64,000 nucleotides of DNA from assembly GCF_017348835.2 (NCBI RefSeq), contig NZ_CP071375.1; one strand, written 5' to 3'. Positions 10,900 through 37,237 of this stretch are shown here, one piece after another (the first letter of the stretch is position 1; the number at the start of each line of letters is the position of its first letter). The stretch is from Escherichia coli. GTDB taxonomy: Bacteria > Pseudomonadota > Gammaproteobacteria > Enterobacterales > Enterobacteriaceae. Both the position numbers and the translations under genes were made by a program. The notes beneath the pieces are model-generated. The model saw only the letters and a list, made by a program, of their open reading frames with translations. It made no database searches and was not told the DNA's origin.

Positions 10900-11070
10900 C
10901 TGTCACACCTTATTTACATCCCCATAGATTATTTGCGTCAGCTCACAAATACGCTTTTTCCCTGGTGAAAAATGATTTCCTGCGTGACTAAAACCCTTGT
11001 GCTCAATTGACAGTTTATTTTCTGCGGAGTAGTCTCTCGTTTCATGGGACCGCTACCACGGAAAGGCAAC

Positions 11071-12750: not shown

Positions 12751-12763
12751 AAAGGAACATCTC

Positions 12764-14056
12764 ATGATTAAATCAAAAATCGTGCTGTTATCAGCACTGG
12801 TTTCCTGCGCCCTGATTTCAGGCTGTAAAGAAGAAAATAAAACCCATGTATCCATCGAATTTATGCATTCTTCGGTGGAGCAGGAGCGTCAGGCAGTTAT
12901 CAGTAAATTGATTGCCCGTTTTGAAAAAGAAAACCCGGGCATCACCGTTAAACAAGTGCCAGTGGAAGAAGATGCCTATAACACCAAAGTCATCACCCTT
13001 TCACGTAGCGGCTCGCTGCCGGAAGTGATCGAAACCAGCCATGACTACGCCAAAGTTATGGACAAAGAGCAGCTTATCGATCGTAAAGCGGTTGCCACGG
13101 TCATCAGCAACGTTGGTGAAGGCGCGTTTTACGATGGCGTACTGCGTATTGTGCGCACCGAAGATGGGAGTGCCTGGACCGGTGTTCCTGTCAGCGCCTG
13201 GATTGGCGGCATCTGGTATCGCAAAGATGTGCTGGCAAAAGCCGGGCTGGAGGAGCCGAAAAACTGGCAGCAGCTGCTGGACGTTGCACAGAAACTGAAT
13301 GACCCGGCGAATAAAAAATACGGTATTGCGCTGCCTACAGCAGAAAGCGTGTTGACGGAACAATCCTTCTCCCAGTTTGCGTTATCCAACCAGGCCAACG
13401 TCTTTAACTCTGAAGGCAAAATCACCCTTGATACACCAGAGATGATGCAGGCGCTGACTTATTACCGCGACCTTGCCGCCAACACCATGCCGGGTTCTAA
13501 CGATATCATGGAAGTGAAAGACGCCTTTATGAACGGCACCGCGCCGATGGCGATTTACTCCACCTATATCCTTCCGGCTGTAATTAAAGAAGGCGACCCG
13601 AAAAACGTCGGTTTCGTGGTGCCAACCGAGAAAAACTCTGCGGTCTACGGCATGTTGACCTCGCTGACTATTACCGCCGGGCAAAAGACCGAAGAGACGG
13701 AAGCGGCGGAAAAATTTGTCACCTTTATGGAACAGGCGGACAACATTGCCGACTGGGTGATGATGTCGCCAGGCGCGGCGCTGCCAGTGAACAAAGCGGT
13801 GGTGACTACCGCCACCTGGAAAGACAACGACGTTATTAAGGCGCTGGGTGAACTACCGAATCAGCTAATCGGTGAACTGCCTAATATTCAGGTCTTTGGC
13901 GCAGTAGGGGATAAAAACTTTACCCGCATGGGCGATGTGACGGGTTCTGGTGTGGTGAGCTCCATGGTGCATAACGTCACCGTGGGTAAAGCCGATCTCC
14001 CTGGCACGCTACAAGCGAGCCAGAAAAAGTTGGATGAACTGATCGAACAGCACTAA
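12764..14056 (+). CDS. ycjN: ABC transporter periplasmic sugar-binding protein
   Basis: 430 aa with lipoprotein-type signal peptide. Confidence 0.9.
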   Translation: MIKSKIVLLSALVSCALISGCKEENKTHVSIEFMHSSVEQERQAVISKLIARFEKENPGITVKQVPVEEDAYNTKVITLSRSGSLPEVIETSHDYAKVMDKEQLIDRKAVATVISNVGEGAFYDGVLRIVRTEDGSAWTGVPVSAWIGGIWYRKDVLAKAGLEEPKNWQQLLDVAQKLNDPANKKYGIALPTAESVLTEQSFSQFALSNQANVFNSEGKITLDTPEMMQALTYYRDLAANTMPGSNDIMEVKDAFMNGTAPMAIYSTYILPAVIKEGDPKNVGFVVPTEKNSAVYGMLTSLTITAGQKTEETEAAEKFVTFMEQADNIADWVMMSPGAALPVNKAVVTTATWKDNDVIKALGELPNQLIGELPNIQVFGAVGDKNFTRMGDVTGSGVVSSMVHNVTVGKADLPGTLQASQKKLDELIEQH

Positions 14057-14076
14057 ACCCAGGACAGGAATCCGCA

Positions 14077-14958
14077 ATGAACAGGCTTTTTTCAGGTCGT
14101 TCCGATATGCCGTTTGCGCTGCTGCTTCTCGCGCCCAGCTTATTACTGCTGGGCGGTCTGGTGGCGTGGCCGATGGTGTCGAATATCGAAATCAGTTTTT
14201 TACGTCTGCCGCTCAATCCCAACATCGAGTCAACGTTTGTTGGGGTGAGTAACTATGTGCGCATTCTCTCCGATCCCGGCTTCTGGCACTCGCTGTGGAT
14301 GACGGTCTGGTATACGGCGCTGGTGGTGGCGGGCAGCACCGTGCTCGGGCTGGCCGTGGCGATGTTTTTCAACCGCGAGTTCCGCCTGCGCAAAACCGCG
14401 CGTTCGCTGGTGATCCTCTCCTACGTAACGCCGTCCATTTCGCTGGTGTTTGCCTGGAAATACATGTTCAACAACGGCTACGGCATTGTGAACTACCTCG
14501 GCGTCGATCTTCTGCATCTCTATGAGCAGGCACCGCTGTGGTTCGATAATCCGGGCAGTAGCTTTGTGCTGGTGGTGCTGTTCGCCATCTGGCGCTACTT
14601 CCCGTATGCCTTTATCTCGTTTCTGGCGATTTTGCAGACCATCGACAAATCGCTGTACGAAGCGGCAGAGATGGATGGCGCTAATGCCTGGCAGCGGTTT
14701 CGCATCGTCACGCTGCCCGCAATTATGCCGGTCCTGGCGACGGTGGTGACTCTGCGCACCATCTGGATGTTTTACATGTTCGCTGATGTTTATCTGCTGA
14801 CAACCAAGGTCGATATTCTCGGTGTCTATCTCTACAAAACCGCCTTTGCCTTTAATGACTTAGGGAAAGCGGCGGCGATCTCGGTGGTGCTCTTCATCAT
14901 TATTTTCGCTGTCATTCTGCTGACCAGGAAACGGGTGAACCTCAATGGCAACAAATAA
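14077..14958 (+). CDS. ycjO: ABC transporter permease
   Basis: 293 aa, MalF-type permease. Confidence 0.9.
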   Translation: MNRLFSGRSDMPFALLLLAPSLLLLGGLVAWPMVSNIEISFLRLPLNPNIESTFVGVSNYVRILSDPGFWHSLWMTVWYTALVVAGSTVLGLAVAMFFNREFRLRKTARSLVILSYVTPSISLVFAWKYMFNNGYGIVNYLGVDLLHLYEQAPLWFDNPGSSFVLVVLFAIWRYFPYAFISFLAILQTIDKSLYEAAEMDGANAWQRFRIVTLPAIMPVLATVVTLRTIWMFYMFADVYLLTTKVDILGVYLYKTAFAFNDLGKAAAISVVLFIIIFAVILLTRKRVNLNGNK

Positions 14959-15787
14959 ACGCACACTCAGTCGTATCGGATTTTACTGCGGGCTGGCGCT
15001 GTTTCTCATCATCACGCTGTTTCCGTTTTTTGTGATGCTGATGACCTCGTTCAAGAGCGCAAAAGAGGCGATCTCGCTGCATCCTACGCTGCTGCCGCAA
15101 CAGTGGACGCTGGAGCATTACGTCGACATTTTTAACCCGGTGATATTCCCGTTTGTCGACTATTTCCGTAACAGCATGGTGGTGTCGGTAGTTTCATCCG
15201 TGGTGGCGGTATTTCTCGGCATTCTCGGGGCTTACGCGCTTTCCCGCCTGCGCTTTAAAGGGCGGATGACCATCAACGCCAGCTTTTACACGGTATACAT
15301 GTTCTCCGGCATTTTGCTGGTGGTGCCGCTGTTCAAAATCATCACCGCGCTTGGCATTTACGACACCGAGATGGCGCTGATCATTACCATGGTGACGCAA
15401 ACCCTGCCCACCGCCGTGTTTATGCTGAAAAGCTACTTCGACACCATCCCTGATGAGATCGAAGAAGCGGCGATGATGGATGGCCTCAACCGTCTGCAAA
15501 TTATCTTCCGTATCACCGTGCCCCTGGCGATGTCCGGGCTGATATCGGTGTTCGTCTACTGCTTTATGGTGGCGTGGAACGACTATCTGTTTGCGTCGAT
15601 TTTCCTCTCCAGCGCCAGCAATTTCACCTTACCAGTGGGCCTGAACGCGCTGTTCAGTACGCCTGATTACATCTGGGGACGCATGATGGCGGCCTCGCTG
15701 GTGACCGCATTGCCGGTGGTGATTATGTATGCGCTTTCGGAACGTTTTATTAAGAGTGGTTTGACCGCCGGTGGCGTGAAGGGCTAA
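14945..15787 (+). CDS. ycjP: ABC transporter permease
   Basis: 280 aa, MalG-type permease; start overlaps ycjO. Confidence 0.9.
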   Translation: MATNKRTLSRIGFYCGLALFLIITLFPFFVMLMTSFKSAKEAISLHPTLLPQQWTLEHYVDIFNPVIFPFVDYFRNSMVVSVVSSVVAVFLGILGAYALSRLRFKGRMTINASFYTVYMFSGILLVVPLFKIITALGIYDTEMALIITMVTQTLPTAVFMLKSYFDTIPDEIEEAAMMDGLNRLQIIFRITVPLAMSGLISVFVYCFMVAWNDYLFASIFLSSASNFTLPVGLNALFSTPDYIWGRMMAASLVTALPVVIMYALSERFIKSGLTAGGVKG

Positions 15788-15817
15788 AGCGGCCAGTTTA
15801 TTGACAAGGAGTTTTAA

Positions 15818-16813
15818 ATGAAAAAGTTAGTAGCCACGGCACCGCGCGTAGCGGCGCTGGTTGAGTATGAAGACAGGGCGATTTTAGCCAATGAAGTGAA
15901 GATCCGCGTGCGTTTCGGCGCGCCGAAGCACGGGACGGAAGTGGTCGATTTCCGCGCCGCCAGCCCGTTTATCGATGAAGACTTTAACGGTGAATGGCAG
16001 ATGTTCACCCCGCGCCCGGCAGATGCGCCGCGCGGCATTGAGTTTGGCAAATTCCAGCTTGGCAACATGGTGGTTGGCGACATTATCGAATGCGGCAGCG
16101 CCGTTACCGATTACGCGGTGGGCGACAGCGTATGCGGCTACGGCCCGCTTTCCGAAACGGTCATCATTAACGCGGTGAATAACTACAAGCTGCGCAAAAT
16201 GCCGAAAGGCAGTTCGTGGAAAAACGCCGTCTGCTACGACCCGGCGCAGTTTGCCATGAGCGGCGTGCGCGATGCCAACGTGCGCGTAGGGGATTTTGTG
16301 GTGGTGGTAGGGCTTGGCGCGATTGGTCAAATTGCCATCCAACTGGCGAAACGCGCTGGCGCGTCTGTGGTGATTGGCGTCGATCCTATCGCCCATCGCT
16401 GTGATATTGCCCGTCGCCACGGCGCGGATTTCTGCCTTAACCCCATCGGCACTGACGTAGGGAAAGAGATCAAAACGCTGACCGGCAAGCAGGGTGCCGA
16501 TGTGATTATCGAAACCAGCGGCTACGCCGACGCGCTGCAATCGGCACTGCGCGGCCTGGCTTACGGCGGCACCATCTCCTATGTCGCGTTTGCCAAACCG
16601 TTTGCCGAAGGTTTCAACCTCGGACGCGAAGCGCATTTCAATAACGCCAAAATTGTCTTCTCCCGCGCGTGCAGCGAACCGAACCCGGATTATCCGCGCT
16701 GGAGCCGTAAGCGTATTGAAGAAACCTGCTGGGAACTGCTGATGAACGGTTATCTCAATTGTGAAGATTTAATCGACCCGGTGGTGACCTTTGCTAACAG
16801 CCCGGAAAGCTAA
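15818..16813 (+). CDS. ycjQ: zinc-type dehydrogenase YcjQ (D-guloside 3-dehydrogenase), ending 19 codons early at an in-frame TAA
   Basis: 331-aa ORF; the same frame continues in-frame after the TAA at 16811-16813 for 18 codons (MQYVDQHPEQSIKMGVTF) to a second stop at 16868-16870, giving the 350 aa I recall for the K-12 protein. Confidence 0.85.
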   Translation: MKKLVATAPRVAALVEYEDRAILANEVKIRVRFGAPKHGTEVVDFRAASPFIDEDFNGEWQMFTPRPADAPRGIEFGKFQLGNMVVGDIIECGSAVTDYAVGDSVCGYGPLSETVIINAVNNYKLRKMPKGSSWKNAVCYDPAQFAMSGVRDANVRVGDFVVVVGLGAIGQIAIQLAKRAGASVVIGVDPIAHRCDIARRHGADFCLNPIGTDVGKEIKTLTGKQGADVIIETSGYADALQSALRGLAYGGTISYVAFAKPFAEGFNLGREAHFNNAKIVFSRACSEPNPDYPRWSRKRIEETCWELLMNGYLNCEDLIDPVVTFANSPES

Positions 16814-16888
16814 ATGCAGTACGTTGACCAGCATCCGGAACAGAGCATCAAAATGGGCGTTACGTTTTAATTCAAAGGAATGAAAAAA

Positions 16889-17677
16889 ATGAAAATCGGC
16901 ACACAGAATCAGGCGTTCTTTCCGGAAAACATTCTAGAGAAATTTCGTTATATCAAAGAGATGGGCTTCGATGGTTTTGAAATCGACGGCAAACTGCTGG
17001 TCAACAACATCGAAGAAGTGAAAGCGGCGATCAAAGAAACTGGTTTACCGGTGACCACCGCCTGCGGTGGCTATAACGGCTGGATTGGCGACTTTATCGA
17101 AGAGCGTCGTCTTAATGGCTTAAAGCAGATAGAGCGCATTCTCGAAGCGCTGGCAGAAGTGGGCGGTAAAGGTATCGTCGTTCCGGCAGCGTGGGGCATG
17201 TTTACCTTCCGCTTACCGCCGATGACTTCACCGCGCAGCCTGGACGGCGACCGTAAAATGGTGAGCGATTCCCTGCGCGTACTGGAACAGGTAGCCGCGC
17301 GTACCGGAACCGTGGTGTATCTCGAACCGTTAAACCGTTATCAGGATCACATGATCAACACCCTCGCCGATGCCCGCCGTTACATCGTCGAAAACGATCT
17401 TAAACATGTGCAGATTATCGGCGATTTCTATCACATGAATATCGAAGAAGATAACCTGGCGCAGGCGCTGCATGACAACCGCGACCTGCTCGGTCATGTG
17501 CATATTGCCGATAACCATCGTTATCAGCCGGGCAGCGGCACCCTGGATTTCCACGCGCTGTTTGAACAACTGCGCGCCGATAATTATCAGGGCTATGTGG
17601 TGTATGAAGGGCGCATTCGGGCAGAAGATCCTGCCCAGGCGTACCGTGATTCTTTGGCCTGGTTGCGTACCTGCTAA
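16889..17677 (+). CDS. ycjR: sugar epimerase, xylose isomerase-like TIM barrel (3-dehydro-D-guloside 4-epimerase)
   Basis: 262 aa from MKIGTQNQAFF. Confidence 0.9.
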   Translation: MKIGTQNQAFFPENILEKFRYIKEMGFDGFEIDGKLLVNNIEEVKAAIKETGLPVTTACGGYNGWIGDFIEERRLNGLKQIERILEALAEVGGKGIVVPAAWGMFTFRLPPMTSPRSLDGDRKMVSDSLRVLEQVAARTGTVVYLEPLNRYQDHMINTLADARRYIVENDLKHVQIIGDFYHMNIEEDNLAQALHDNRDLLGHVHIADNHRYQPGSGTLDFHALFEQLRADNYQGYVVYEGRIRAEDPAQAYRDSLAWLRTC

Positions 17678-17686
17678 GAGGTCTTT

Positions 17687-18742
17687 GTGAAAAGTGCAAT
17701 GACAAGCTCTCCGCTGCGGGTCGCGATCATAGGCGCGGGCCAGGTGGCGGATAAAGTTCATGCTTCGTACTACTGCACCCGCAACGATCTGGAACTGGTG
17801 GCTGTCTGTGACAGCCGCCTTTCCCAGGCGCAGGCGCTGGCAGATAAATACGGTAATGCATCCGTGTGGGACGATCCGCAGGCCATGCTGCTGGCGGTGA
17901 AACCTGACGTGGTTAGCGTCTGCTCACCTAACCGTTTTCATTACGAACATACCCTGATGGCACTGGAAGCGGGCTGCCATGTGATGTGCGAAAAACCGCC
18001 CGCCATGACGCCAGAACAGGCGCGGGAAATGTGCGATATCGCGCGCAAACAGGGCAAGGTGCTGGCCTACGACTTTCACCATCGTTTTGCGCTCGATACG
18101 CAACAGCTGCGTGAACAGGTGACCAACGGCGTTTTGGGAGAGATTTACGTTACCACCGCCCGCGCCCTGCGTCGCTGCGGCGTTCCCGGCTGGGGTGTCT
18201 TTACCAATAAAGAACTGCAGGGTGGTGGCCCGCTGATCGACATCGGCATTCATATGCTGGATGCTGCAATGTATGTGCTGGGCTTTCCGGCGGTGAAAAG
18301 CGTGAATGCGCATAGTTTTCAAAAGATCGGCACGCAAAAGAGCTGTGGTCAATTTGGCGAGTGGGATCCGGCAACTTACAGCGTCGAAGATTCGCTGTTT
18401 GGCACCATTGAATTTCATAACGGCGGCATTCTGTGGCTGGAAACGTCATTTGCACTCAACATCCGCGAACAGTCGATTATGAACGTCAGCTTTTGCGGTG
18501 ATAAAGCCGGTGCGACGCTGTTTCCAGCACATATCTACACCGATAACAACGGTGAATTAATGACGCTGATGCAACGGGAAATGGCAGACGACAACCGCCA
18601 TTTGCGCAGCATGGAAGCCTTTATCAATCACGTACAGGGCAAGCCCGTGATGATAGCCGATGCCGAGCAGGGGTACATCATCCAGCAACTGGTGGCGGCG
18701 TTGTATCAATCCGCAGAAACAGGGACGCGTGTGGAATTATGA
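17687..18742 (+). CDS. ycjS: Gfo/Idh/MocA-family NAD-dependent oxidoreductase (D-glucoside 3-dehydrogenase)
   Basis: 351 aa, GTG start, Rossmann motif IIGAGQVA. Confidence 0.9.
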   Translation: MKSAMTSSPLRVAIIGAGQVADKVHASYYCTRNDLELVAVCDSRLSQAQALADKYGNASVWDDPQAMLLAVKPDVVSVCSPNRFHYEHTLMALEAGCHVMCEKPPAMTPEQAREMCDIARKQGKVLAYDFHHRFALDTQQLREQVTNGVLGEIYVTTARALRRCGVPGWGVFTNKELQGGGPLIDIGIHMLDAAMYVLGFPAVKSVNAHSFQKIGTQKSCGQFGEWDPATYSVEDSLFGTIEFHNGGILWLETSFALNIREQSIMNVSFCGDKAGATLFPAHIYTDNNGELMTLMQREMADDNRHLRSMEAFINHVQGKPVMIADAEQGYIIQQLVAALYQSAETGTRVEL

Positions 18743-21006
18743 CCAGGCCAGTAACGTTATCAGAACCCCATTTCAGCCAGCATACCCTGAACAAGTATGC
18801 ATCACTGATGGCGCAGGGGAACGGCTATCTTGGGCTTCGCGCCAGCCATGAAGAAGATTACACGCGCCAGACGCGCGGCATGTATCTGGCGGGGCTGTAT
18901 CATCGGGCGGGTAAAGGTGAAATCAACGAACTGGTGAACCTGCCCGATGTGGTGGGGATGGAGATTGCCATAAATGGTGAGGTTTTCTCATTATCCCGCG
19001 AAGCCTGGCAGCGTGAGCTTGACTTTGCCAGTGGCGAATTACGCCGCAGCGTTGTCTGGCGTACCAGCAACGGCACAGGTTACACCATCGCCAGCCGTCG
19101 CTTTGTTTCGGCAGACCAACTGCCGCTCATTGCGCTGGAAATCACTATTACTCCACTGGACGCCGACGCGTCAGTGCTGATTTCAACAGGCATTGACGCC
19201 ACGCAAACCAATCACGGTCGCCAACATTTCGACGAAACCCAGGTGCGGGTGTTTGGTCAGCATCTGATGCAGGGGATCTACACCACCCAGGATGGACGCA
19301 GTGATGTGGCCATCAGCTGTTGCTGTAAGGTGAGCGGTGATGTGCAGCAATGCTATACCGCCAAAGAGCGCCGTTTGCTGCAACATACCAGCGCGCAACT
19401 TCACGCAGGCGAAACGCTGACGCTGCAAAAACTGGTGTGGATCGACTGGCGGGATGACAGGCAAGCTGCTTTAGACGAGTGGGGCAGTGCGTCGCTTCGC
19501 CAGCTTGAAATGTGTGCGCAGCAGAGTTACGACCAACTTCTTGCAGCATCAACAGAAAACTGGCGTCAGTGGTGGCAGAAACGTCGTATCACGGTAAACG
19601 GCGGCGATGCGCACGATCAGCAAGCGTTAGATTATGCGCTTTATCATCTGCGCATCATGACGCCTGCTCACGACGAGCGCAGCAGTATTGCGGCAAAAGG
19701 CTTAACCGGAGAAGGCTACAAAGGCCACGTTTTCTGGGATACAGAAGTATTTTTGCTACCGTTTCATCTGTTTAGCGATCCGACGGTTGCCCGAAGTTTA
19801 CTGCGTTATCGCTGGCACAACTTGCCAGGCGCGCAGGAGAAAGCGCGACGCAACGGCTGGCAGGGCGCGCTATTTCCGTGGGAGAGCGCACGCAGTGGTG
19901 AAGAAGAGACGCCGGAATTTGCCGCCATTAACATTCGCACCGGGCTGCGGCAAAAAGTGGCCTCGGCGCAGGCTGAACATCATCTGGTCGCCGATATCGC
20001 CTGGGCGGTTATTCAATACTGGCAGACAACGGGGGATGAAAGTTTCATTGCTCATGAAGGCATAGCGCTACTTCTGGAGAGCGCAAAGTTCTGGATTAGC
20101 CGCGCGGTAAGGGTTAACGACCGTCTGGAAATTCATGATGTTATTGGGCCAGACGAATATACCGAACATGTCAATAATAACGCCTTCACCAGCTATATGG
20201 CGTATTACAACGTCCAGCAGGCGCTGAACATCGCTCGTCAATTTGGCTGTAGCGACGTTGCGTTTATCCATCGCGCCGAAATGTTCCTCAAAGAGTTGTG
20301 GCTGCCAGAAACTCAGCCCGACGGCGTTTTGCCGCAGGATGATTCGTTTATGGCTAAGCCGGCGATTAATCTGGCGAAATACAAAGCGGCGGCGGGGAAG
20401 CAAACCATTCTGCTGGATTATTCACGCGCAGAAGTGAACGAGATGCAGATCCTCAAACAAGCTGATGTGGTGATGCTCAATTACATGCTGCCGGAGCAGT
20501 TCTCAGCGGCATCGTGTCTTGCCAATCTGCAATTTTATGAACCGCGCACTATTCACGACTCGTCATTAAGTAAAGCAATCCACGGCATTGTTGCCGCACG
20601 CTGTGGCCTGCTGACCCAAAGTTATCAGTTCTGGCGCGAGGGGACTGAAATCGATCTTGGTGCTGATCCGCATAGTTGTGATGATGGTATCCATGCTGCC
20701 GCAACTGGCGCTATCTGGCTGGGGGCGATTCAGGGTTTTGCCGGGGTGAGCGTGCGTGACGGTGAATTGCATCTAAATCCGGCGTTACCTGAGCAGTGGC
20801 AACAGTTGTCTTTCCCTCTGTTCTGGCAGGGCTGCGAATTACAGGTCACGCTCGACGCGCAGCGTATTGCGATTCGAACTTCTGCGCCCGTTTCACTGCG
20901 TTTGAACGGCCAGCTTATATCCGTGGCTGAAAAATCTGTTTTCTGTTTGGGTGATTATATTTTGCCCTTCAATGGGACCGCTACCACGCATCAGGAGGAT
21001 GAATGA
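18739..21006 (+). CDS. ycjT: kojibiose phosphorylase (GH65)
   Basis: 755 aa. Confidence 0.9.
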
Positions 21007-21662
21007 AACTGCAAGGGGTAATTTTCGATCTGGATGGTGTAATCACCGATACCGCGCATCTGCATTTCCAGGCGTGGCAGCAGATTGCCGCTGAAATTGG
21101 CATCAGCATTGATGCGCAGTTTAACGAATCCCTAAAAGGGATTAGCCGCGATGAGTCTCTGCGGCGCATTCTGCAATACGGGGGCAAAGAGGGCGACTTT
21201 AACTCGCAGGAGCGGGCGCAACTGGCGTATCGCAAAAATCTGCTCTACGTCCACTCACTGCGCGAACTGACGGTTAATGCCGTTCTGCCGGGGATCCGGC
21301 CTTTGCTGGCAGATCTCCGCGCACAGCAGATCCCGGTAGGGCTGGCTTCCGTCTCCCTGAATGCGCCGACGATTTTAGCGGCGCTGGAGCTGCGCGAGTT
21401 TTTCACCTTCTGCGCGGATGCTTCCCAACTTAAAAACTCGAAACCGGATCCGGAAATCTTTCTCGCTGCTTGTGCCGGGCTGGGCGTGCCGCCGCAGGCA
21501 TGTATCGGCATTGAAGATGCGCAGGCGGGCATTGACGCCATTAACGCCAGCGGTATGCGCTCGGTGGGGATCGGCGCGGGCTTAACCGGGGCGCAATTAC
21601 TATTGCCTTCAACGGACTCCCTGACCTGGTCGCGGTTATCGGCCTTCTGGCAAAACGTATAG
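21003..21662 (+). CDS. ycjU: beta-phosphoglucomutase (HAD superfamily)
   Basis: 219 aa with HAD motif I ([10 protein letters not shown]). Confidence 0.9.
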
Positions 21663-21675
21663 CAAAGGAATCAAC

Positions 21676-22758
21676 ATGGCTCAGCTTTCGTTACAACATA
21701 TTCAAAAAATCTACGATAACCAGGTGCATGTGGTGAAGGACTTCAACCTGGAAATTGCCGATAAAGAGTTCATCGTATTTGTCGGCCCGTCGGGCTGCGG
21801 TAAATCGACCACCCTGCGCATGATTGCCGGGCTTGAGGAGATCAGCGGCGGCGATCTGTTGATCGACGGCAAACGAATGAATGACGTTCCAGCCAAAGCA
21901 CGCAATATCGCGATGGTGTTCCAGAACTACGCGTTGTATCCGCATATGACGGTCTACGACAACATGGCGTTTGGCCTGAAGATGCAAAAAATCGCCAAAG
22001 AGGTGATTGATGAGCGGGTGAACTGGGCGGCGCAAATTCTCGGCCTGCGTGAGTACCTGAAACGCAAGCCGGGCGCGCTTTCCGGCGGGCAACGCCAGCG
22101 TGTGGCGCTCGGGCGGGCGATTGTGCGCGAAGCGGGCGTGTTTTTAATGGATGAACCGCTCTCTAACCTTGATGCCAAGCTGCGCGTACAAATGCGCGCA
22201 GAGATCAGCAAGCTGCATCAGAAACTGAACACCACCATGATCTACGTGACCCACGATCAGACCGAAGCGATGACCATGGCGACGCGGATTGTGATTATGA
22301 AAGACGGGATTGTTCAGCAAGTGGGTGCGCCGAAAACCGTTTATAACCAACCCGCGAATATGTTTGTTGCCGGATTTATTGGATCACCAGCGATGAATTT
22401 TATTCGCGGCACGATCGATGGCGATAAATTCGTTACGGAAACGCTTAAATTAACCATTCCCGAAGAGAAATTAGCGGTTCTGAAAACACAGGAAAGTTTG
22501 CATAAGCCCATCGTGATGGGAATACGCCCGGAAGATATTCATCCGGACGCGCAAGAGGAAAATAACATTTCCGCCAAAATTAGCGTGGCAGAATTAACCG
22601 GTGCGGAATTTATGCTCTACACCACGGTTGGGGGGCACGAGTTAGTGGTCCGTGCTGGTGCGTTAAATGATTATCATGCAGGAGAAAATATCACCATTCA
22701 TTTTGATATGACGAAATGTCATTTCTTTGATGCAGAAACGGAAATAGCAATTCGCTAA
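21676..22758 (+). CDS. ycjV: ABC transporter ATP-binding protein (MalK-like), intact
   Basis: 360 aa with Walker A (GPSGCGKST), signature LSGGQRQR and Walker B (FLMDEP). Confidence 0.85.
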   Translation: MAQLSLQHIQKIYDNQVHVVKDFNLEIADKEFIVFVGPSGCGKSTTLRMIAGLEEISGGDLLIDGKRMNDVPAKARNIAMVFQNYALYPHMTVYDNMAFGLKMQKIAKEVIDERVNWAAQILGLREYLKRKPGALSGGQRQRVALGRAIVREAGVFLMDEPLSNLDAKLRVQMRAEISKLHQKLNTTMIYVTHDQTEAMTMATRIVIMKDGIVQQVGAPKTVYNQPANMFVAGFIGSPAMNFIRGTIDGDKFVTETLKLTIPEEKLAVLKTQESLHKPIVMGIRPEDIHPDAQEENNISAKISVAELTGAEFMLYTTVGGHELVVRAGALNDYHAGENITIHFDMTKCHFFDAETEIAIR

Positions 22759-29774: not shown

Positions 29775-30724
<950 letters not shown>

Positions 30725-30750
<26 letters not shown>

Positions 30751-31453
30751 GATGCCAGCGCAGCAAGTTTGCCATCGCAAAGATATATTTTTCGCTGGCT
30801 TCGTCGGAGGAGATGGGCGGAAACTCTGCGGTGATGCAATGCAAGTTGAGATCTGCACACCAACTGCCGAAAGAGCCAGGCGTTTCATAACCGACGCTGG
30901 TTACCAGAGGCAATTCAAACGCCTGGGCCAGCCATTCGCCTAATTCGCTGTGTCTGGGATCTTCAATACAAGCCAGTGGATCGTGGAATGAGACCACCCA
31001 GGCAGGTTGAATGCGGTGTATAAGCTGGCACAGCGCCTGGGTTTCAGGTTCGGAGCCAGGTTTGTCACCTGTCAGTAATACGACATCACGTTCTTCAGCG
31101 GCGCTGTTCCAGCGATAAACCGTTTCACCTTCCTTCCAGTTCGCCGCCGGAAAGTTTCTGTTTAAATCCACACCATTAGCATTGGCCCGTAACCCCAGCT
31201 GGCAGCCGTCAGGATTCACACACAGCACCACATGATGGCGGCGCAAAGAAGGTGTCAAAGTCCGCAGAGCACAGGAGAGCGTGACGACCGAAGAGTTTTC
31301 ATCACCGTGAGTGCCAGCCAGAATCAAACCACTTTCGCGACTGGCTGCAGGGGCAGGAAACCAGATTAACGGCGCGCCCAATAATGAACGTCCGTAATGT
31401 TCTGTTCCGGGCGGAAATGCGCCGCGTTCGGCGCGTGGGCGGGTTACGGTCAT
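30725..31453 (-). CDS. mpaA: murein peptide amidase A (zinc carboxypeptidase family)
   Basis: 242 aa from MTVTRPRAERG; 3' end overlaps ycjG. Confidence 0.9.
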
Positions 31454-31743
31454 GATCGTCTCTGGTTCAGGAAGTATTACAGGCAGTGTTGTGCAAATTT
31501 TGCGGATTATCAAATCCTTTTCTTCAACGCTATGTCATCGATCTTGTATCACCTTTTTGCCGGAAGTTGTTTGTATTTTCATTGATGTGCAGATATTAGA
31601 ATTGTCGTAATGTTATATACATGGCGTATTTTATTCTTATTGGTTCTACACATGTTAATCGCATCTGATTGATCAGTTCACCTTAATAAGTTTAATAAAT
31701 CGTACTGCACATAGTACAGTACGATGGTAGCTATATAATTGAT

Positions 31744-32382
31744 TTACATGAAGAATGGCTTATCGCCATCAGTCCCGGGTTGATTGATGCCTATATTCTC
31801 ACCAATGTGTTTCTCAGGTTTATCGATGATATCTGTAATTAATGCTGCGACACTCTTACGTGATACGATCGTACCTTTGAATGGTTCATTGCGTGAGGTA
31901 AGCTCATAATCAATAATATCTTCATCCGTCAGCCAGGCAGGGCGAAGAATTGTATATTCCAGTCCAGAAGCCTCAATTGCATCCGCAGCCCTGCGGAATG
32001 GTTTTAGGGGTTCACCAATAACTGCATTATTCCATTCGCCAAATTTTCCTGGAACTTCATCATAAATGCCGAGGGAAAGAACAAAGATCAGACGTTTAAC
32101 ATCACAGGCTTTCATCGCAGCGATCACTGAATTTGCCTGAATATCTAAATCTTCCCCCGTAAGGTTGGCATACACAATATCCTGTCCCTGCATGGCCTGC
32201 TTCAGTGCTGCATGATTCAGTACATCCCCCATAATAATCTGGCTATTAGTTGGATAGGGTTTGTGTATTTTTGCTGGCTGACGAGCAAATAAAGTTTGTT
32301 TAATGGTTTGTTTATCTGCCAGTTGATTAATCACATGGCGGGCTATCTGACCGCCAGCACCAAGAATGAGTACTTTTTTCAT
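31744..32382 (-). CDS. NAD(P)H-binding protein (NmrA/atypical SDR-like), apparently intact
   Basis: 212 aa from MKKVLILGAGGQIARHV (Rossmann motif); possibly the intact counterpart of the K-12 ymjC remnant. Confidence 0.7.
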   Translation of the reverse strand: MKKVLILGAGGQIARHVINQLADKQTIKQTLFARQPAKIHKPYPTNSQIIMGDVLNHAALKQAMQGQDIVYANLTGEDLDIQANSVIAAMKACDVKRLIFVLSLGIYDEVPGKFGEWNNAVIGEPLKPFRRAADAIEASGLEYTILRPAWLTDEDIIDYELTSRNEPFKGTIVSRKSVAALITDIIDKPEKHIGENIGINQPGTDGDKPFFM

Positions 32383-32399
32383 AATATTTCTCATGAAAC

Positions 32400-33330
32400 T
32401 TATCCCAGATGGGTGTTGAAAAAAGGAATAACTTTTTCCAGCGCCTCCTGAACTGCTTCCGGTTTGTCATACAGTTCATAATGTGAGAAATCGGGTAACG
32501 AAACTAACTGACGATCCTGCGAAACCATCGCCCGGCCATAGACTTCCAGTCCATCACGATAAGCACCGAAGGCACCGACTTTTTCACCAACTACTACCAT
32601 CACCGGCTGAGTCAGTAACACTTCAGTAAATGCGAAGGCATCCCAGGCCAGCGTTTTCTGTGCATGTGAGAACAACATTTTTGTCGCACCTCCCGGTTGT
32701 TGCCCGCGTGGTGTTTTATAGTAGTCAGTTGCTTCATAAACATCGCGTTCGGTCAGTCCATGGGCTTTTGCTGCATCCAGGCTGGCGGGAAGTAATTCGT
32801 TGATCTGTAATTCTCCACCACGAGCCTCTTTGGTTCGTTGCGACGCCATTGCATTCAATGCGCCAATCGGATCGTAATTGCTGAAACCTTCCCGAAAAAG
32901 ACGCCCGATATTAACACCCGTAATACTCACTACAGCTTTAATTCGTTTTTCTGTCAGCGCGGCATTAATGGCATAGCCCCCCCCCACACACACCCAGCAC
33001 GCCAATGCGTTCAGCATCAACATATGGCAGAGTTACTGCATAATCGATAACACGGCTAATATCCTCTACGCGCTGTGTCGGATCTTCTATCCAACGAGGC
33101 TCCCCACCAGATTCTCCCTGGAAACTGGCGTCATAAGCGAGAACGACATAGCCTTTTTCAGCCAATGCCTTGCCATAGATATTGCCAGACGTCTGCTCCT
33201 TACAACTGCCAAAAGGATGGACGCTGATAATCGCCGGATACTGTTTTGACTCATCAAAATTTGGTGGAAACTGAATATTGGCAGCAATATGCCAGGCCAT
33301 ATCACTATTGCGGATTTGAATATGTTTCAT
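32400..33330 (-). pseudogene. dienelactone-hydrolase-like alpha/beta hydrolase, paralog of ycjY, disrupted by a frameshift in a C9 homopolymer
   Basis: Two overlapping ORFs (32965-33330 and 32400-33023) each cover half of the fold; frames switch in the C9 run at 32977-32985 (G9 on the coding strand) at the GVCGGGG-Y nucleophile motif; paralog ycjY reads GICAGAGY there. Confidence 0.75.
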
Positions 33331-34250
33331 TACAGAGTTTCCTCAAAGAACGGAGCTAATACTGAAATTGCTTCAGCCACATAGGCTTTGCCGTCATAAA
33401 GATCCATATGGTTTGCGCCTTCAACAATGTGATAGCGTTTATCCTGGCTTGATGCCCGATCGTACAGATCGTCACTCATCCATTTGCTCCCTGCCTGGCT
33501 GCCCGCCACAATCTGCATCGGCTGAGTCAGGTACACTTCCGCCATATGGTAAGCATCATAGGTAATAATCTGGTTAAGGCTGCGCAAAGTAGCGTAACCC
33601 GGTGCTGTTGGATACTGCGCGCGAGGGGTGTGGTAATACTCCCAGGCCTGACGCAGTTCTTCGTTCGGCGCATCGGACTCCTTCATTGGTGCCAGTGGCA
33701 TAATGGCGTATTCTCCGCTGCTAATATCGCTGGTTCTGGCGTTTGAACCCGCTTCAACGTATGGCAGGGCATCAATAGATTTCACATTGTTTTCCCAACC
33801 ATTACGGAACATCGAACCAATATTGACCGCACTAACGGTACCGATGGCCTTGATGCGGCGATCCTGAATTGCAGCATTGGCTGTATATCCTGCACCGGCA
33901 CAAATTCCCATCGCACCAATTCGGGTATTGTCGACATAAGAAAGCGTTGTCAGGTAATCAATCACGGCACTGACGTCTTCAGTACGAATGTATGGGTTTT
34001 CTAACTGACGCGGCTCGCCGCCGCTTTCACCTTGATAAGATGCGTCATAAGCAATAGTGACAAATCCCTTTTCCGCCAGTTTTTCGGCATAGGTTCCGGC
34101 CGTTTGCTCTTTAACGCCCCCACCAGGGTGAGATACCACAATTGCCGGATACTGACGGGTTTCATCAAATTTTGGAGGGAAATAGATCACTGCAGACAAA
34201 GAGATGGTTGGATTATTGCTGTTAGTGAAGCTGACTTTATTATTCATCAT
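33330..34250 (-). CDS. ycjY: alpha/beta hydrolase (dienelactone hydrolase / S9-like non-peptidase homolog)
   Basis: 306 aa from MMNNKVSFTNSNN; stop overlaps the start of the downstream paralog (TAATG). Confidence 0.8.
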   Translation of the reverse strand: MMNNKVSFTNSNNPTISLSAVIYFPPKFDETRQYPAIVVSHPGGGVKEQTAGTYAEKLAEKGFVTIAYDASYQGESGGEPRQLENPYIRTEDVSAVIDYLTTLSYVDNTRIGAMGICAGAGYTANAAIQDRRIKAIGTVSAVNIGSMFRNGWENNVKSIDALPYVEAGSNARTSDISSGEYAIMPLAPMKESDAPNEELRQAWEYYHTPRAQYPTAPGYATLRSLNQIITYDAYHMAEVYLTQPMQIVAGSQAGSKWMSDDLYDRASSQDKRYHIVEGANHMDLYDGKAYVAEAISVLAPFFEETL

Positions 34251-34387
34251 TCCGTTCCTCATGGAGTTGTCGGTTCGTTTTAACGGTTGGTGATATCACT
34301 ATAGATATTGATCATTAAGTTGATTAGACCCAAAATCATGATTAGACCTATCATTTAAATGATTAATAGATTGTATGGAGATACTGA

Positions 34388-35287
34388 ATGAAGCGTGAAG
34401 AAATCGCTGATCTGATGGCGTTTGTCGTCGTTGCAGAGGAGCGTAGCTTCACTCGCGCTGCAGCCCGCCTGAGCATGGCGCAGTCAGCTTTAAGCCAGAT
34501 AGTGCGCCGTATAGAAGAACGATTGGGATTGCGGCTTCTGACGCGAACTACGCGCAGCGTTGTACCAACTGAAGCGGGCGAGCATCTTTTGTCTGTTCTT
34601 GGCCCTATGTTGCATGACATAGATTCTGCCCTGACATCCCTGAGCGATCTGCAGAACCGCCCATCCGGGACAATACGTATTACTACTGTAGAACATGCAG
34701 CAAAAACGATATTGTTACCAGCAATGCGCACATTCCTGAAATCGCATCCTGAAATTGATATCCAGCTTACCATTGATTATGGTTTGACCGATGTCGTTTC
34801 TGAACGTTTTGATGCAGGCGTCCGTCTGGGTGGGGAGATGGATAAAGATATGATCGCCATTCGAATCGGGCCAGATATACCAATGGCTATTGTTGGCTCA
34901 CCGGATTATTTTTCTCGCCGAAGTGTTCCAACGTCAGTGTCACAATTAATAGATCATCAGGCAATTAATTTGTACCTTCCCACATCGGGTACAGCAAATC
35001 GCTGGAGATTAATACGCGGTGGACGTGAAGTTCGTGTTCGCATGGAAGGTCAGCTTTTACTGAATACGATAGACCTGATCATTGATGCTGCAATTGATGG
35101 GCATGGATTGGCGTATCTACCTTATGATCAGGTTGAGCGGGCTATTAAAGAAAAAAAACTGATACGTGTTCTGGATAAATTCACACCAGATTTACCCGGT
35201 TATCACCTGTACTATCCACACCGTCGACATGCTGGCTCGGCATTCTCATTATTTATAGATAGGCTGAAGTATAAAGGTGCTGTTTAG
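34388..35287 (+). CDS. pgrR: LysR-family regulator of peptidoglycan degradation
   Basis: 299 aa with LysR HTH. Confidence 0.9.
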   Translation: MKREEIADLMAFVVVAEERSFTRAAARLSMAQSALSQIVRRIEERLGLRLLTRTTRSVVPTEAGEHLLSVLGPMLHDIDSALTSLSDLQNRPSGTIRITTVEHAAKTILLPAMRTFLKSHPEIDIQLTIDYGLTDVVSERFDAGVRLGGEMDKDMIAIRIGPDIPMAIVGSPDYFSRRSVPTSVSQLIDHQAINLYLPTSGTANRWRLIRGGREVRVRMEGQLLLNTIDLIIDAAIDGHGLAYLPYDQVERAIKEKKLIRVLDKFTPDLPGYHLYYPHRRHAGSAFSLFIDRLKYKGAV

Positions 35288-35623
35288 CACTACTTGCTGA
35301 TACATTAATTTAATTCTTCTCTTAACGTATTCTCAGTTCCTTTCAACGTTTTGGTTATTTTTTATTCTTCGTACAATGGCGACAGATGCTGATTATGATA
35401 CCGAAAACTGGTTTGAACGTGCGAAGCCCGAACGTAGTGTTCGGTGTTCTATGTGCTTTGCCGCATTTTGGCGTCTATTATTTACACTAAATCTAATTTA
35501 ATATATTGATACATAAAACATTTTATGCTTCCTGTGTCACTTTTTTGATGGAAGTTGTTTGCATTTCTTTAAGGCGAAACAAATAATTACGCATCAATTT
35601 TAATGTCGGTTAGAGGGAAACTT

Positions 35624-37237
35624 ATGAAGCACTCTGTTTCAGTCACGTGTTGTGCGCTGTTGGTCAGCAGCATTTCTCTTTCGTATGCTGCAGAAGTTCC
35701 GAGCGGCACAGTACTGGCAGAGAAGCAGGAGCTGGTGCGCCACATTAAAGATGAGCCTGCGTCGCTGGATCCCGCTAAAGCCGTGGGCCTGCCAGAGATT
35801 CAGGTCATTCGCGATCTGTTTGAAGGACTGGTGAATCAGAACGAGAAAGGGGAGATTGTCCCCGGCGTTGCGACTCAGTGGAAAAGTAATGACAACCGTA
35901 TCTGGACTTTTACCCTGCGCGATAACGCAAAATGGGCGGATGGCACACCGGTAACGGCGCAAGATTTTGTCTACAGCTGGCAGCGTCTGGTGGACCCGAA
36001 AACGCTATCGCCATTTGCATGGTTTGCCGCGCTGGCGGGAATCAACAACGCACAGGCGATTATTGATGGTAAAGCTACGCCTGACCAGCTTGGCGTCACC
36101 GCAGTTGATGCCCATACTTTGAAAATTCAGCTTGATAAACCGTTGCCGTGGTTTGTGAATTTAACCGCTAACTTTGCCTTCTTCCCGGTGCAAAAAGCCA
36201 ACGTAGAAAGCGGTAAAGAGTGGACGAAACCCGGAAATCTGATCGGCAATGGCGCTTATGTTCTTAAAGAGCGCGTAGTCAATGAAAAACTGGTCGTGGT
36301 ACCGAATACCCATTATTGGGATAACGCCAAAACGGTACTGCAAAAAGTGACCTTCCTGCCAATTAATCAGGAATCCGCAGCCACTAAGCGTTACCTCGCG
36401 GGGGATATTGATATCACCGAATCCTTCCCGAAAAATATGTATCAGAAGCTGTTGAAGGATATTCCGGGGCAGGTTTATACGCCGCCGCAGCTCGGGACCT
36501 ATTATTATGCGTTTAACACGCAAAAAGGGCCGACGGCAGATCAGCGCGTTCGTCTGGCATTAAGTATGACGATAGATCGCCGCCTGATGACCGAAAAAGT
36601 ATTAGGGACGGGCGAAAAGCCAGCGTGGCATTTTACACCAGATGTTACCGCCGGATTTACGCCGGAACCTTCGCCGTTTGAACAAATGAGTCAGGAAGAA
36701 CTGAATGCGCAGGCAAAAACTTTGTTGAGCGCAGCTGGTTATGGTCCGCAAAAACCGCTGAAGCTGACGCTTTTGTATAACACTTCAGAAAACCATCAAA
36801 AAATTGCGATTGCTGTAGCATCGATGTGGAAAAAGAACCTTGGCGTAGATGTTAAATTGCAAAATCAGGAATGGAAAACCTATATCGATAGCCGTAACAC
36901 CGGCAATTTTGATGTTATCCGCGCCTCATGGGTGGGGGATTATAATGAACCCTCCACGTTCCTGACATTATTAACGTCAACGCATTCAGGAAATATTTCA
37001 CGCTTTAACAATCCGGCATACGACAAAGTTCTGGCCCAGGCATCGACGGAAAATACCGTTAAAGCGCGTAATGCCGATTACAACGCGGCAGAAAAAATCC
37101 TCATGGAGCAAGCACCGATTGCACCAATTTATCAATATACCAATGGACGATTAATCAAACCGTGGCTGAAAGGTTATCCCATTAATAACCCTGAAGATGT
37201 GGCGTACAGTCGGACTATGTATATTGTGAAGCATTGA
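35624..37237 (+). CDS. mppA: murein tripeptide periplasmic binding protein
   Basis: 537 aa from MKHSVSVTCCALL with signal peptide. Confidence 0.95.
   Translation: MKHSVSVTCCALLVSSISLSYAAEVPSGTVLAEKQELVRHIKDEPASLDPAKAVGLPEIQVIRDLFEGLVNQNEKGEIVPGVATQWKSNDNRIWTFTLRDNAKWADGTPVTAQDFVYSWQRLVDPKTLSPFAWFAALAGINNAQAIIDGKATPDQLGVTAVDAHTLKIQLDKPLPWFVNLTANFAFFPVQKANVESGKEWTKPGNLIGNGAYVLKERVVNEKLVVVPNTHYWDNAKTVLQKVTFLPINQESAATKRYLAGDIDITESFPKNMYQKLLKDIPGQVYTPPQLGTYYYAFNTQKGPTADQRVRLALSMTIDRRLMTEKVLGTGEKPAWHFTPDVTAGFTPEPSPFEQMSQEELNAQAKTLLSAAGYGPQKPLKLTLLYNTSENHQKIAIAVASMWKKNLGVDVKLQNQEWKTYIDSRNTGNFDVIRASWVGDYNEPSTFLTLLTSTHSGNISRFNNPAYDKVLAQASTENTVKARNADYNAAEKILMEQAPIAPIYQYTNGRLIKPWLKGYPINNPEDVAYSRTMYIVKH

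Follow-up and report, generated by a model that had tools for sequence, protein, structure and literature searches.

A more complete, but not intact, copy of the pgrR-ycjY gene cassette in an Escherichia coli strain and the probable decay of this cassette to the ymjD and ymjC remnants of K-12

In the window (the whole 64,000-nucleotide stretch of E. coli DNA analyzed here), a four-gene cassette lies between mpaA and mppA and comprises the regulator gene pgrR and, divergent from it, ycjY, a gene for a second hydrolase (hydrolase 2), and a gene for an NAD(P)-binding reductase (Table 1). The open reading frame of ycjY spans 33330-34262, with the PGAP start at 34250, and that of the reductase spans 31744-32394, with the PGAP start at 32382. 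Hydrolase 2 is represented by two open reading frame halves, 32965-33330 and 32400-33023, which together make up one 310-aa gene. In the record for E. coli PE164, which is 100% identical, PGAP lists an alpha/beta hydrolase, an alpha/beta hydrolase marked "frameshifted," and an SDR family oxidoreductase. The stop codon of ycjY (33332-33330) overlaps the start codon of hydrolase 2 (33330-33328), so that base 33330 is common to both, and this junction, CTGTAATGAAA, is also found in K. variicola and S. marcescens. Hydrolase 2 and the reductase gene are spaced by 17-18 nt, a distance common to phylogroup-B1-like loci and Klebsiella.

Table 1. Positions of the cassette, its neighbors, and the associated sequence features in the window.
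Feature	Position	Strand	Description
ycjV	21676-22758	+	intact 360-aa ABC ATPase; open frame
mpaA	30725-31453	-	next gene downstream, same strand; 290 nt from reductase
Deletion 2	31584-32243		missing in K-12-like genomes only; from alignments
Hairpin	31699-31725	-	12-bp hairpin followed by UUUAUU, 18 nt past reductase stop; missing from K-12
Reductase	31744-32382	-	212 aa; NAD_binding_10/atypical SDR; full-length parent of K-12 ymjC
Hydrolase 2-reductase 12-nt stretch	32383-32394		missing from deletion-1 haplotype
Hydrolase 2	32400-33330	-	ycjY paralog; pseudogene, -2 frameshift; full-length parent of K-12 ymjD
Deletion 1	32411-33275		missing in K-12 and all genomes lacking hydrolase 2; from alignments and junctions
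G9 homopolymer (C9 on +)	32977-32985	-	right after nucleophile Cys codon; frameshift site
TAATG stop/start overlap, ycjY/hydrolase 2	33328-33332	-	read from sequence
ycjY	33330-34250	-	306-aa alpha/beta hydrolase; ORF, Pfam, PDB 5XB6, PGAP
ycjY-pgrR promoter/operator region	34251-34387		divergent; repeat TGATAGGTCTAAT ... GGTCTAATC
pgrR (ycjZ)	34388-35287	+	LysR-type regulator, divergent from operon; PGAP on PE164

Over 299 aa, YcjY and hydrolase 2 share 42% identity (E = 2e-72). Both match PF02129 (Peptidase_S15) at 42-43 bits (cut-off 23) and PF01738 (DLH) at 36-37 bits (cut-off 21), and both contain a nucleophile elbow of the form G-x-C-x-G (GICAG in YcjY and GVCGG in hydrolase 2). Based on the profile matches and the elbow, both are predicted to have an alpha/beta hydrolase fold and to be dienelactone-hydrolase-like. 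The same Pfam matches and elbow are seen in dienelactone hydrolase-type enzymes with a Cys nucleophile, including PA2218 (2HDW) and YcjY itself, the structure of which is PDB 5XB6; hydrolase 2 matches 5XB6 at E = 1e-68. Against the UilS acyl-homoserine lactonase family (NF047920), the two hydrolases scored 87.2 and 77.6 bits, far under the 400-bit curated cut-off, and, judged by these scores, they are distant relatives of UilS only, which would provide a lead toward lactone chemistry rather than membership in the family. The reductase matches PF13460 (NAD_binding_10) over profile positions 1-184 of 184 (183.8 bits) and has a glycine-rich dinucleotide-binding motif, LILGAGGQIA, at N-terminal residues 5-14; the full-length domain together with the motif places it among the NAD(P)-binding atypical SDR proteins (NAD_binding_10/NmrA-like). 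The first-pass annotation had reported a full NAD(P)-binding gene near ycjY, a second hydrolase paralog that is frameshifted, and a TAATG coupling to ycjY, all of which are borne out by these data. A literature search found no function reported for YcjY, 5XB6, or PA2218. Over-expression of ycjY leads to filamentation (PMC3614548), and other ycjY-related reports are pangenome or machine-learning associations (PMC9602453, PMC12711010). We infer that the enzymes of the cassette, inducible through the LysR regulator, hydrolyze and reduce some small molecule of an ester or lactone type.

The region between ycjY and pgrR contains the promoter-like hexamers TAGACC-18-TATCAT, which are the same as those of pgrR in PMC3946193, and its repeat is kept in Klebsiella and Serratia and recognizable in alphaproteobacteria. 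A homologous LysR gene is present in the pgrR position in every cassette examined, with HTH_1 and LysR_substrate as the Pfam domains recorded for these homologs. The PGAP assignment as PgrR, the divergent promoter-like sites, and the conserved operator-like repeat are consistent with a LysR regulator facing its putative target operon. Binding by PgrR is known from the K-12 literature only (PMC5934670), where the corresponding regulon entry is ycjY-ymjDC-mpaA (PMC5934670, PMC3946193). In a search of 30500-36000 against Rfam (E <= 1), the sole match was to RAGATH-10 inside pgrR; it scored 24 bits, below the gathering score of 41, and was discarded. The hairpin downstream of the reductase gene has a fold energy of -19 to -20 kcal/mol and a moderate z score of -2.1. 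It is kept in all E. coli loci that retain the reductase and in Escherichia sp. E4742, and homologous hairpins in Serratia and Klebsiella show compensatory changes. The hairpin is possibly a partial terminator; a scan for consensus terminators made no call for it, and a plain terminator role is uncertain because the homologous hairpin in Serratia and Klebsiella sits between two co-oriented genes.

In MG1655 (NC_000913.3), the corresponding annotations are ymjC (b4525) and ymjD (b4673), and both align, in matching position and orientation, to the termini of the window genes, of which they are remnants. The 21-aa YmjD (MKHIQIRNSDMDWHIAAN followed by NLG*) consists of hydrolase-2 residues 1-18 fused in frame to its last codons, and the 60-aa YmjC consists of reductase residues 1-46 plus 14 residues of intergenic read-through, compared with window parents of 310 aa (frameshifted) and 212 aa. 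K-12 also retains pgrR and ycjY, the K-12 blocks are 95-99% identical to the window genes at the nucleotide level, and the two loci share their position, divergent promoter hexamers, regulator, and first gene. Over 22.7 kb, the window and MG1655 are 97.4% identical, with two deletions on the K-12 side. Deletion 1 (865-867 bp) is in frame relative to the intact hydrolase-2 allele, and its junction is identical in K-12 and in strain RM14723, which lacks hydrolase 2. Deletion 2 (~660 bp) covers the 3' three-quarters of the reductase gene and 160 nt downstream, including the hairpin; mpaA lies 81 nt from ymjC in K-12, whereas the window keeps a 290-nt, hairpin-bearing spacer. Because the K-12 remnants keep the ends of hydrolase 2 and the start of the reductase, it is K-12 that lost DNA rather than the strain studied here that gained it. 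The MG1655 annotation and alignment, in which hydrolase 2 and the reductase are not intact and ymjD, ymjC, and ycjV/ymjB are annotated, agree with the initial suggestions that the strain is not K-12 and that K-12 has only ymjC and ymjD as remnants here.

Among 5426 complete E. coli genomes, approximately 24% have all three genes of the divergent operon, ~31% are without hydrolase 2, and ~42% are K-12-like, although these percentages are not population frequencies, as the collection is skewed to O157:H7 and K-12 laboratory derivatives. Hydrolase 2 was detected in 1282 of the 5426, the 3' part of the reductase in 2942, and any match to the locus in 5242; a few genomes have lost all of these, one of them being strain MDR_56, with an IS421 replacement. 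E. coli strains with an intact three-gene form (for example, STEC005, O111:H8 1056-1, and O8:H8 16F5M1D1; protein WP_000680602.1) have the same genes, order, overlap, and spacing as the window, at 98.3-98.6% nucleotide identity. Other strains encode an unbroken 310-aa hydrolase 2; among the loci sampled, the gene is open in STEC005, RM10042, OkiPb01697, O111:H8, O8:H8, A16, and 32F4, and frameshifted in PE164, O157:H7 ATCC 43890, strain 108, and ECNB21-M121, while internal stops are found in hydrolase 2 of O145:H28 RM12581 and in ycjY of O157:H7 TR01.

At the site of the frameshift, intact strains carry G5TGGTGG, an interrupted run of Gly codons that leaves hydrolase 2 open, whereas the window carries an uninterrupted G9 with a -2 frameshift, and only a 121-aa fragment is therefore encoded. 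Comparison of alleles identified two that are in frame, G5TGGTGG (~790 genomes) and G8TGG (~80), along with G9TGG (~222), G10TGG (~83), G10, and the G9 of the window (1); some of the variation in long-read tract lengths could be homopolymer error, but the alleles are carried by EDL933 and numerous independent assemblies. The truncated product of each allele recurs in many independent assemblies, that of G9TGG being Z2444 of EDL933. Tract length varies among close relatives, with G8, G9, and G10 in O157:H7 and G8 and G9 in O145, and the occurrence of these versions in related lineages points to homopolymer slippage. It might be argued that the tract is a contingency locus, at which slippage would toggle hydrolase 2 and the variation would be selected rather than reflect neutral decay, and the position of the G8-G10 run inside an open reading frame, the differences in length within a serotype, and the persistence of in-frame alleles would fit such a role. 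We nevertheless consider this improbable, as the ratio of in-frame to out-of-frame alleles is ~80 to 305, close to or under the one-third to be expected in the absence of selection, and hydrolase 2 has been deleted outright in ~73% of genomes. Irreversible loss of hydrolase 2 is also frequent elsewhere, the O145:H28 gene has an in-frame tract yet is inactivated by a nonsense mutation, and the tract was born of a synonymous change, with the interrupted Gly-codon run stable in ~790 genomes.

It is less likely still that the frameshift is an assembly or sequencing error in the homopolymer and that hydrolase 2 is truly intact in this strain. While runs of G9-G10 are error-prone on long-read platforms, and PE164 is the only complete genome with the exact 98-nt window sequence, an identical 121-aa truncated product is encoded on 25 independent contigs with separate accessions (NCBI, JGI, ENA, and Logan), and the sister allele G10 is present in 5 complete genomes and 108 contigs. 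Moreover, the window allele does not have the TGG that follows the run in other lineages and is thus no simple miscount. The G9 frameshift in the window is a real allele.

The cassette of pgrR and the three divergent genes is conserved well beyond E. coli, in Klebsiella, Serratia, Oligotropha, Labilithrix (a myxobacterium), Mesorhizobium, and Sphingobium. The copies in Klebsiella, Serratia, Oligotropha carboxidovorans OM5, Labilithrix, and Mesorhizobium match the E. coli cassette in all four genes and in gene order and orientation, encode proteins 68-94% identical to those of E. coli (68-81% for all four proteins in Oligotropha), and conserve the operator-like repeat, with the TAATG coupling found in the enterobacterial copies. 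The cassette also lies beside IS110 on conjugative Klebsiella plasmids and is found on a conjugative IncF plasmid, and integrases or a resolvase adjoin it in Sphingobium, Mesorhizobium, and K. variicola. The cassette itself looks to have been horizontally acquired, although base composition says little on this point, as the right flank (G+C of 0.465) is as AT-rich as the cassette (0.46), with the left flank higher. In Serratia and K. variicola, the operon runs on into classical SDR genes and an old-yellow-enzyme reductase, and in Serratia also a flavodoxin-like gene, whereas the E. coli copy ends just past the hairpin and the ribosome-binding site, both of which precede the next gene in those species. 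Even in its complete form, the E. coli operon looks like a shortened version of the longer one in Klebsiella and Serratia; tblastn with the downstream genes of Serratia and Klebsiella (adh_short, flavodoxin-like, and OYE) found no remnants in the reductase-mpaA spacer or elsewhere in the window.

In Escherichia sp. E4742, the corresponding chromosomal site carries the order mppA-pgrR-ycjY-hydrolase 2-reductase-mpaA; we take E4742 to be a cryptic-clade Escherichia, and it provides an outgroup represented by one Logan assembly, in which ycjY is split. The view that the lineage of this strain recently gained the extra genes by insertion, with K-12 as the original state, is refuted despite the mobility of the cassette elsewhere (next to IS110 on conjugative Klebsiella plasmids and with integrases or a resolvase nearby) and its lower G+C relative to the left flank, as K-12 holds pgrR, ycjY, and fragments of both missing genes at 95-96% nucleotide identity, including both termini of hydrolase 2, which an insertion cannot create, and as the three-gene form occupies the same site in E4742. 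From the comparison of sequences, we regard it as settled that K-12 represents the decayed state, given the anatomy of the remnants, the E4742 outgroup, and seven cassette loci, which show that distant bacteria have kept the four genes as a unit.

Collectively, we judge it approximately 90% probable that the window contains a more complete, but not intact, copy of a cassette that predates the diversification of E. coli and that different lineages have degraded in different ways. The starting point would be a LysR regulator, pgrR, and a divergent operon encoding YcjY, another alpha/beta hydrolase of the Cys type, and an NAD(P)-binding reductase. An in-frame deletion of 865-867 bp would have stripped nearly all of hydrolase 2 to leave ymjD, and a second deletion of ~660 bp, on the deletion-1 background, would then have taken most of the reductase to leave ymjC, giving the K-12 state. 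In other lineages, a synonymous change of GGT to GGG within the Gly-rich nucleophile elbow (C-G-G-G-G) probably converted G5TGGTGG to a run of G8, which now varies by slippage as G8, G9, or G10, with a further change leading to the G10 and G9 runs, of which the window has the G9 (-2) form. Nonsense mutations and an IS421-associated deletion would account for yet other strains. We infer that selection on the two downstream genes, those for hydrolase 2 and the reductase, has been relaxed in E. coli. The first-pass annotation described the locus as ancestral and intact and as showing lineage-specific gene decay; the decay is upheld by the remnants, the outgroup, and the distant cassettes, and the locus is ancestral on the time scale of E. 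coli, but it is not intact, as hydrolase 2 is a pseudogene here.

A broader, and rather doubtful, suggestion is that PgrR is dedicated to regulating a mobile four-gene hydrolase/reductase cassette spread by plasmids, with peptidoglycan recycling not its primary target, and that its reported control of mpaA in K-12 is a by-product of the K-12-type deletion. The loss of the reductase 3' end and the hairpin in this deletion, which left mpaA 81 nt away, could be the cause of the PgrR-mpaA link. On that view, the half or so of E. coli that have kept the reductase and the hairpin would show a weaker PgrR-mpaA link or none. For this operon, K-12 serves poorly as a reference, and studies of PgrR and "ycjY-ymjDC-mpaA" used a cut-down form of a cassette whose conservation extends from Klebsiella plasmids to alphaproteobacteria.

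The differences described here are ordinary strain-to-strain gene decay, and public annotation already has the remnants, with the full genes and the frameshift labeled in RefSeq. The series from G5TGGTGG through G8TGG to G9/G10 offers a clean, small case of a synonymous change seeding a slippage-prone run and thereby starting pseudogenization. Elsewhere in the window, ycjV had been singled out as a full 360-aa gene that is a pseudogene in K-12, and this also holds. K-12 ycjV has a G5 instead of the G6 run at window positions 22630-22635, one G being missing, and MG1655 lists ycjV (b1318) and ymjB (b4524) as pseudogenes. The exact K-12 ycjV allele is present in 367 of 4995 genomes, and the difference probably reflects a separate one-base loss in the G6 run, confined to the K-12 lineage.

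The three genes between mpaA and pgrR are carried with 100% identity over 31600-34400 by the pig isolate E. coli PE164, in which PGAP labels them alpha/beta hydrolase, alpha/beta hydrolase "frameshifted" and SDR family oxidoreductase. The first-pass annotation had placed a full NAD(P)-binding gene beside ycjY, and its product, a reductase, indeed consists of a full-length NAD_binding_10 domain (183.8 bits). The second full-length but frameshifted hydrolase paralog reported there, hydrolase 2, was also recovered, at 42% identity to YcjY, and it is coupled to ycjY by a TAATG overlap as described, with base 33330 common to the ycjY stop codon and the hydrolase 2 start codon. YcjY and hydrolase 2 both score above threshold against the Peptidase_S15 and dienelactone-hydrolase profiles, and each contains a G-x-C-x-G elbow.

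Features of the mpaA-pgrR interval and ycjV in window coordinates
Feature	Position	Strand	Remark
ycjV	21676-22758		open frame, 360 aa
mpaA	30725-31453	-	downstream flank of the three-gene stretch
NAD(P)-binding reductase, 212 aa	31744-32382	-	mechanical ORF to 32394
hydrolase 2 (alpha/beta hydrolase)	32965-33330 + 32400-33023	-	two overlapping ORF halves
ycjY	33330-34250	-	ORF reaches 34262
pgrR	34388-35287	+	upstream flank, divergent to the three-gene stretch

In MG1655, the annotated order is mpaA, ymjC (b4525, 60 aa), ymjD (b4673, 21 aa), ycjY, and pgrR, with the pseudogenes ycjV (b1318) and ymjB (b4524) farther upstream. Aligned to MG1655, the window shows 97.4% identity over 22.7 kb, and K-12 lacks two blocks of it, 32411-33275 (deletion 1, in hydrolase 2) and 31584-32243 (deletion 2, the 3' part of the reductase gene and downstream DNA), as well as 12 nt at 32383-32394. 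YmjD (MKHIQIRNSDMDWHIAAN-NLG*) comprises hydrolase 2 codons 1-18 joined in frame to the last codons of that gene, while YmjC comprises reductase residues 1-46 followed by 14 residues from former intergenic DNA. ymjD and ymjC are deletion scars, so the K-12 state is derived. K-12 ycjV has lost one G from a G6 run (window 22630-22635). This exact allele occurs in 367 of the 4995 genomes with the region (three 100% matches sampled were ER1709, an O16:H48 mouse-gut isolate and a chicken isolate), and all other genomes sampled have the longer form. Two qualifications aside, the observation and interpretation of the first-pass annotation are therefore correct: K-12 retains only remnants of two genes that are fuller here, its ycjV is a pseudogene where that of the window is open, the strain is not K-12, and decay is lineage-specific. 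The locus is "intact" only relative to K-12, however, as the window copy is itself partly decayed and truly intact copies occur in other strains instead.

Across 5426 complete E. coli genomes, a collection skewed to sequenced pathogens and laboratory strains so that shares are not natural frequencies, some portion of the locus is present in 5242, the reductase 3' region in 2942 and hydrolase 2 in 1282. All three genes are present in ~1282 genomes (24%), the reductase is kept with hydrolase 2 deleted in ~1660 (31%), the K-12-like state is found in ~2300 (42%), and ~184 (3%) have no match. The deletion 1 junction is the same in K-12 and in one strain lacking hydrolase 2, which indicates that deletion 2 arose on a deletion 1 background. 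In MDR_56 (locus L027, 5172-6455), from the lowest-ranked matches sampled, the reductase, both hydrolases, pgrR, and the mppA 5' end are all gone, with an IS421 copy in their place; this is a fourth loss state, IS-associated. Separately, O157:H7 ATCC 43890 carries between pgrR and mppA a 75-nt epoxyqueuosine reductase (queH) fragment, per PGAP (L002 6790-6864, ~window 35385-35460), possibly one more gene remnant at the edge of the cassette.

The break in hydrolase 2 falls in the nucleophile-elbow codons, C-G-G-G-G-Y, where the window has a G9 tract (32977-32985) belonging to a series of alleles.

Alleles of the hydrolase 2 G tract
Tract after TGT	Frame	Occurrence	Genomes
GGGGGTGGTGG	in frame	open copies, phylogroup-B1-like strains	~790
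G8TGG	in frame	second lineage, following a T-to-G change	~80
G9TGG	+1	second lineage	~222
G10TGG	+2	second lineage	~83
G10	-1	third group, TGG lost	~5
G9	-2	window and PE164	~1

O157:H7 includes G8, G9, and G10 forms alike. The predicted truncated product of each tract allele was found in the protein collection, with that of G9TGG (EDL933 Z2444) and that of G10TGG each on at least 1000 contigs, that of G10 on 108, and the 121-aa fragment of the window on 25 from four sources, so the alleles are real rather than a single-assembly quirk. As separate lesions, hydrolase 2 is interrupted by a stop at Q70 in O145:H28 RM12581, and ycjY by a stop codon in O157:H7 TR01. That deletions, nonsense mutations, and out-of-frame tracts are frequent fits relaxed selection, and it fits a G tract maintained as an on/off switch less well.

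Close relatives of hydrolase 2 share 85-87% identity with it in Klebsiella and Serratia; in many alphaproteobacteria the figure is 79-83%. At all loci examined (K. variicola, S. marcescens, Oligotropha (Afipia) carboxidovorans OM5, Labilithrix, Mesorhizobium, and Sphingobium), a LysR gene is divergent to a YcjY-like hydrolase gene followed by hydrolase 2, and at all except Sphingobium an NAD_binding_10 gene comes next. The four proteins are 81-94% identical to those of E. coli in enterobacterial cassettes and 68-81% in Oligotropha. Resolvase, integrases, or IS elements adjoin the cassette in several hosts, and K. pneumoniae carries it, with LysR, two hydrolases, and SDR as in E. coli, beside an IS110 transposase on the conjugative IncFIB/IncFII plasmid pKp_SB61170_1 (L028 4043-7590). 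Similar copies were seen on K. variicola, K. aerogenes, and Agrobacterium fabrum plasmids. In Escherichia sp. E4742, the cassette lies between mppA and mpaA, as in E. coli, which speaks for a cassette already present when E. coli began to diversify. In E4742, represented by a single Logan assembly, the decay pattern of E. coli appears reversed: ycjY is split into two ORFs (155 and 160 aa; L023 5082-6001), with hydrolase 2 and the reductase both open. As the main facts can already be read from the RefSeq annotations for K-12, PE164, and O157:H7, little of this is new; what is added, modestly, is the wide spread of the cassette with the help of plasmids, together with the G-tract allele series.

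The pgrR-ycjY intergenic region contains a repeat recognisable across classes, TGATAGGTCTAAT ... GGTCTAATC, with an operator-like direct repeat at window 34300-34360, (T)GATTAGACC ... GATTAGACC, that overlaps the published divergent promoter hexamers, is kept in Klebsiella and Serratia and is recognisable in alphaproteobacterial cassettes. The K. variicola and Serratia operons run on into classical SDR genes and an old-yellow-enzyme reductase, with a flavodoxin-like gene additionally in Serratia. Downstream of the E. coli reductase gene, a hairpin (31699-31725, -) and the AAGGTGA ribosome-binding site just after it (window 31650-31725) are homologous to an intercistronic element of Serratia (L013 7372-7422) and K. 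variicola that lies ahead of a 277-aa adh_short gene, with compensatory changes in the outer stem pairs. Homology stops at the adh_short ATG, so that the E. coli cassette looks like a shortened copy of the longer operon. The K-12 PgrR regulon includes ycjY-ymjDC-mpaA (PMC5934670; PMC3946193). Given that deletion 2 removed the hairpin and left mpaA behind a spacer of 81 instead of 290 nt, PgrR might be coupled to mpaA more strongly in strains of the K-12 type than in ones like that of the window.

The YcjY structure (5XB6) was deposited as uncharacterized, and ycjY over-expression leads to filamentation (PMC3614548). The match to the nearest curated family, the UilS acyl-homoserine lactonase, was far below the cut-off. 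Based on the two Cys-type hydrolases, the NmrA-like reductase, and the ene-reductase and SDR genes of longer versions, we tentatively suggest, with low confidence, that the cassette could break down or detoxify an ester- or lactone-type compound, inducibly and under the control of its LysR regulator.

In the ycj sugar operon, ycjQ, whose K-12 product is D-guloside 3-dehydrogenase, has a nonsense change (TAT to TAA, Y332*; window 16811-16813) that cuts it from 350 to 331 aa, the short form being that annotated by PGAP in PE164; within one operon, this strain thus combines an intact ycjV and a shortened ycjQ. The ycjM-ycjV block (window ~11000-22000) is 94-97% identical to K-12 compared with 98.5-99% for its flanks, ycjM has small compensating indels relative to K-12, and the block as a whole resembles a divergent and perhaps recombined allele of the operon.
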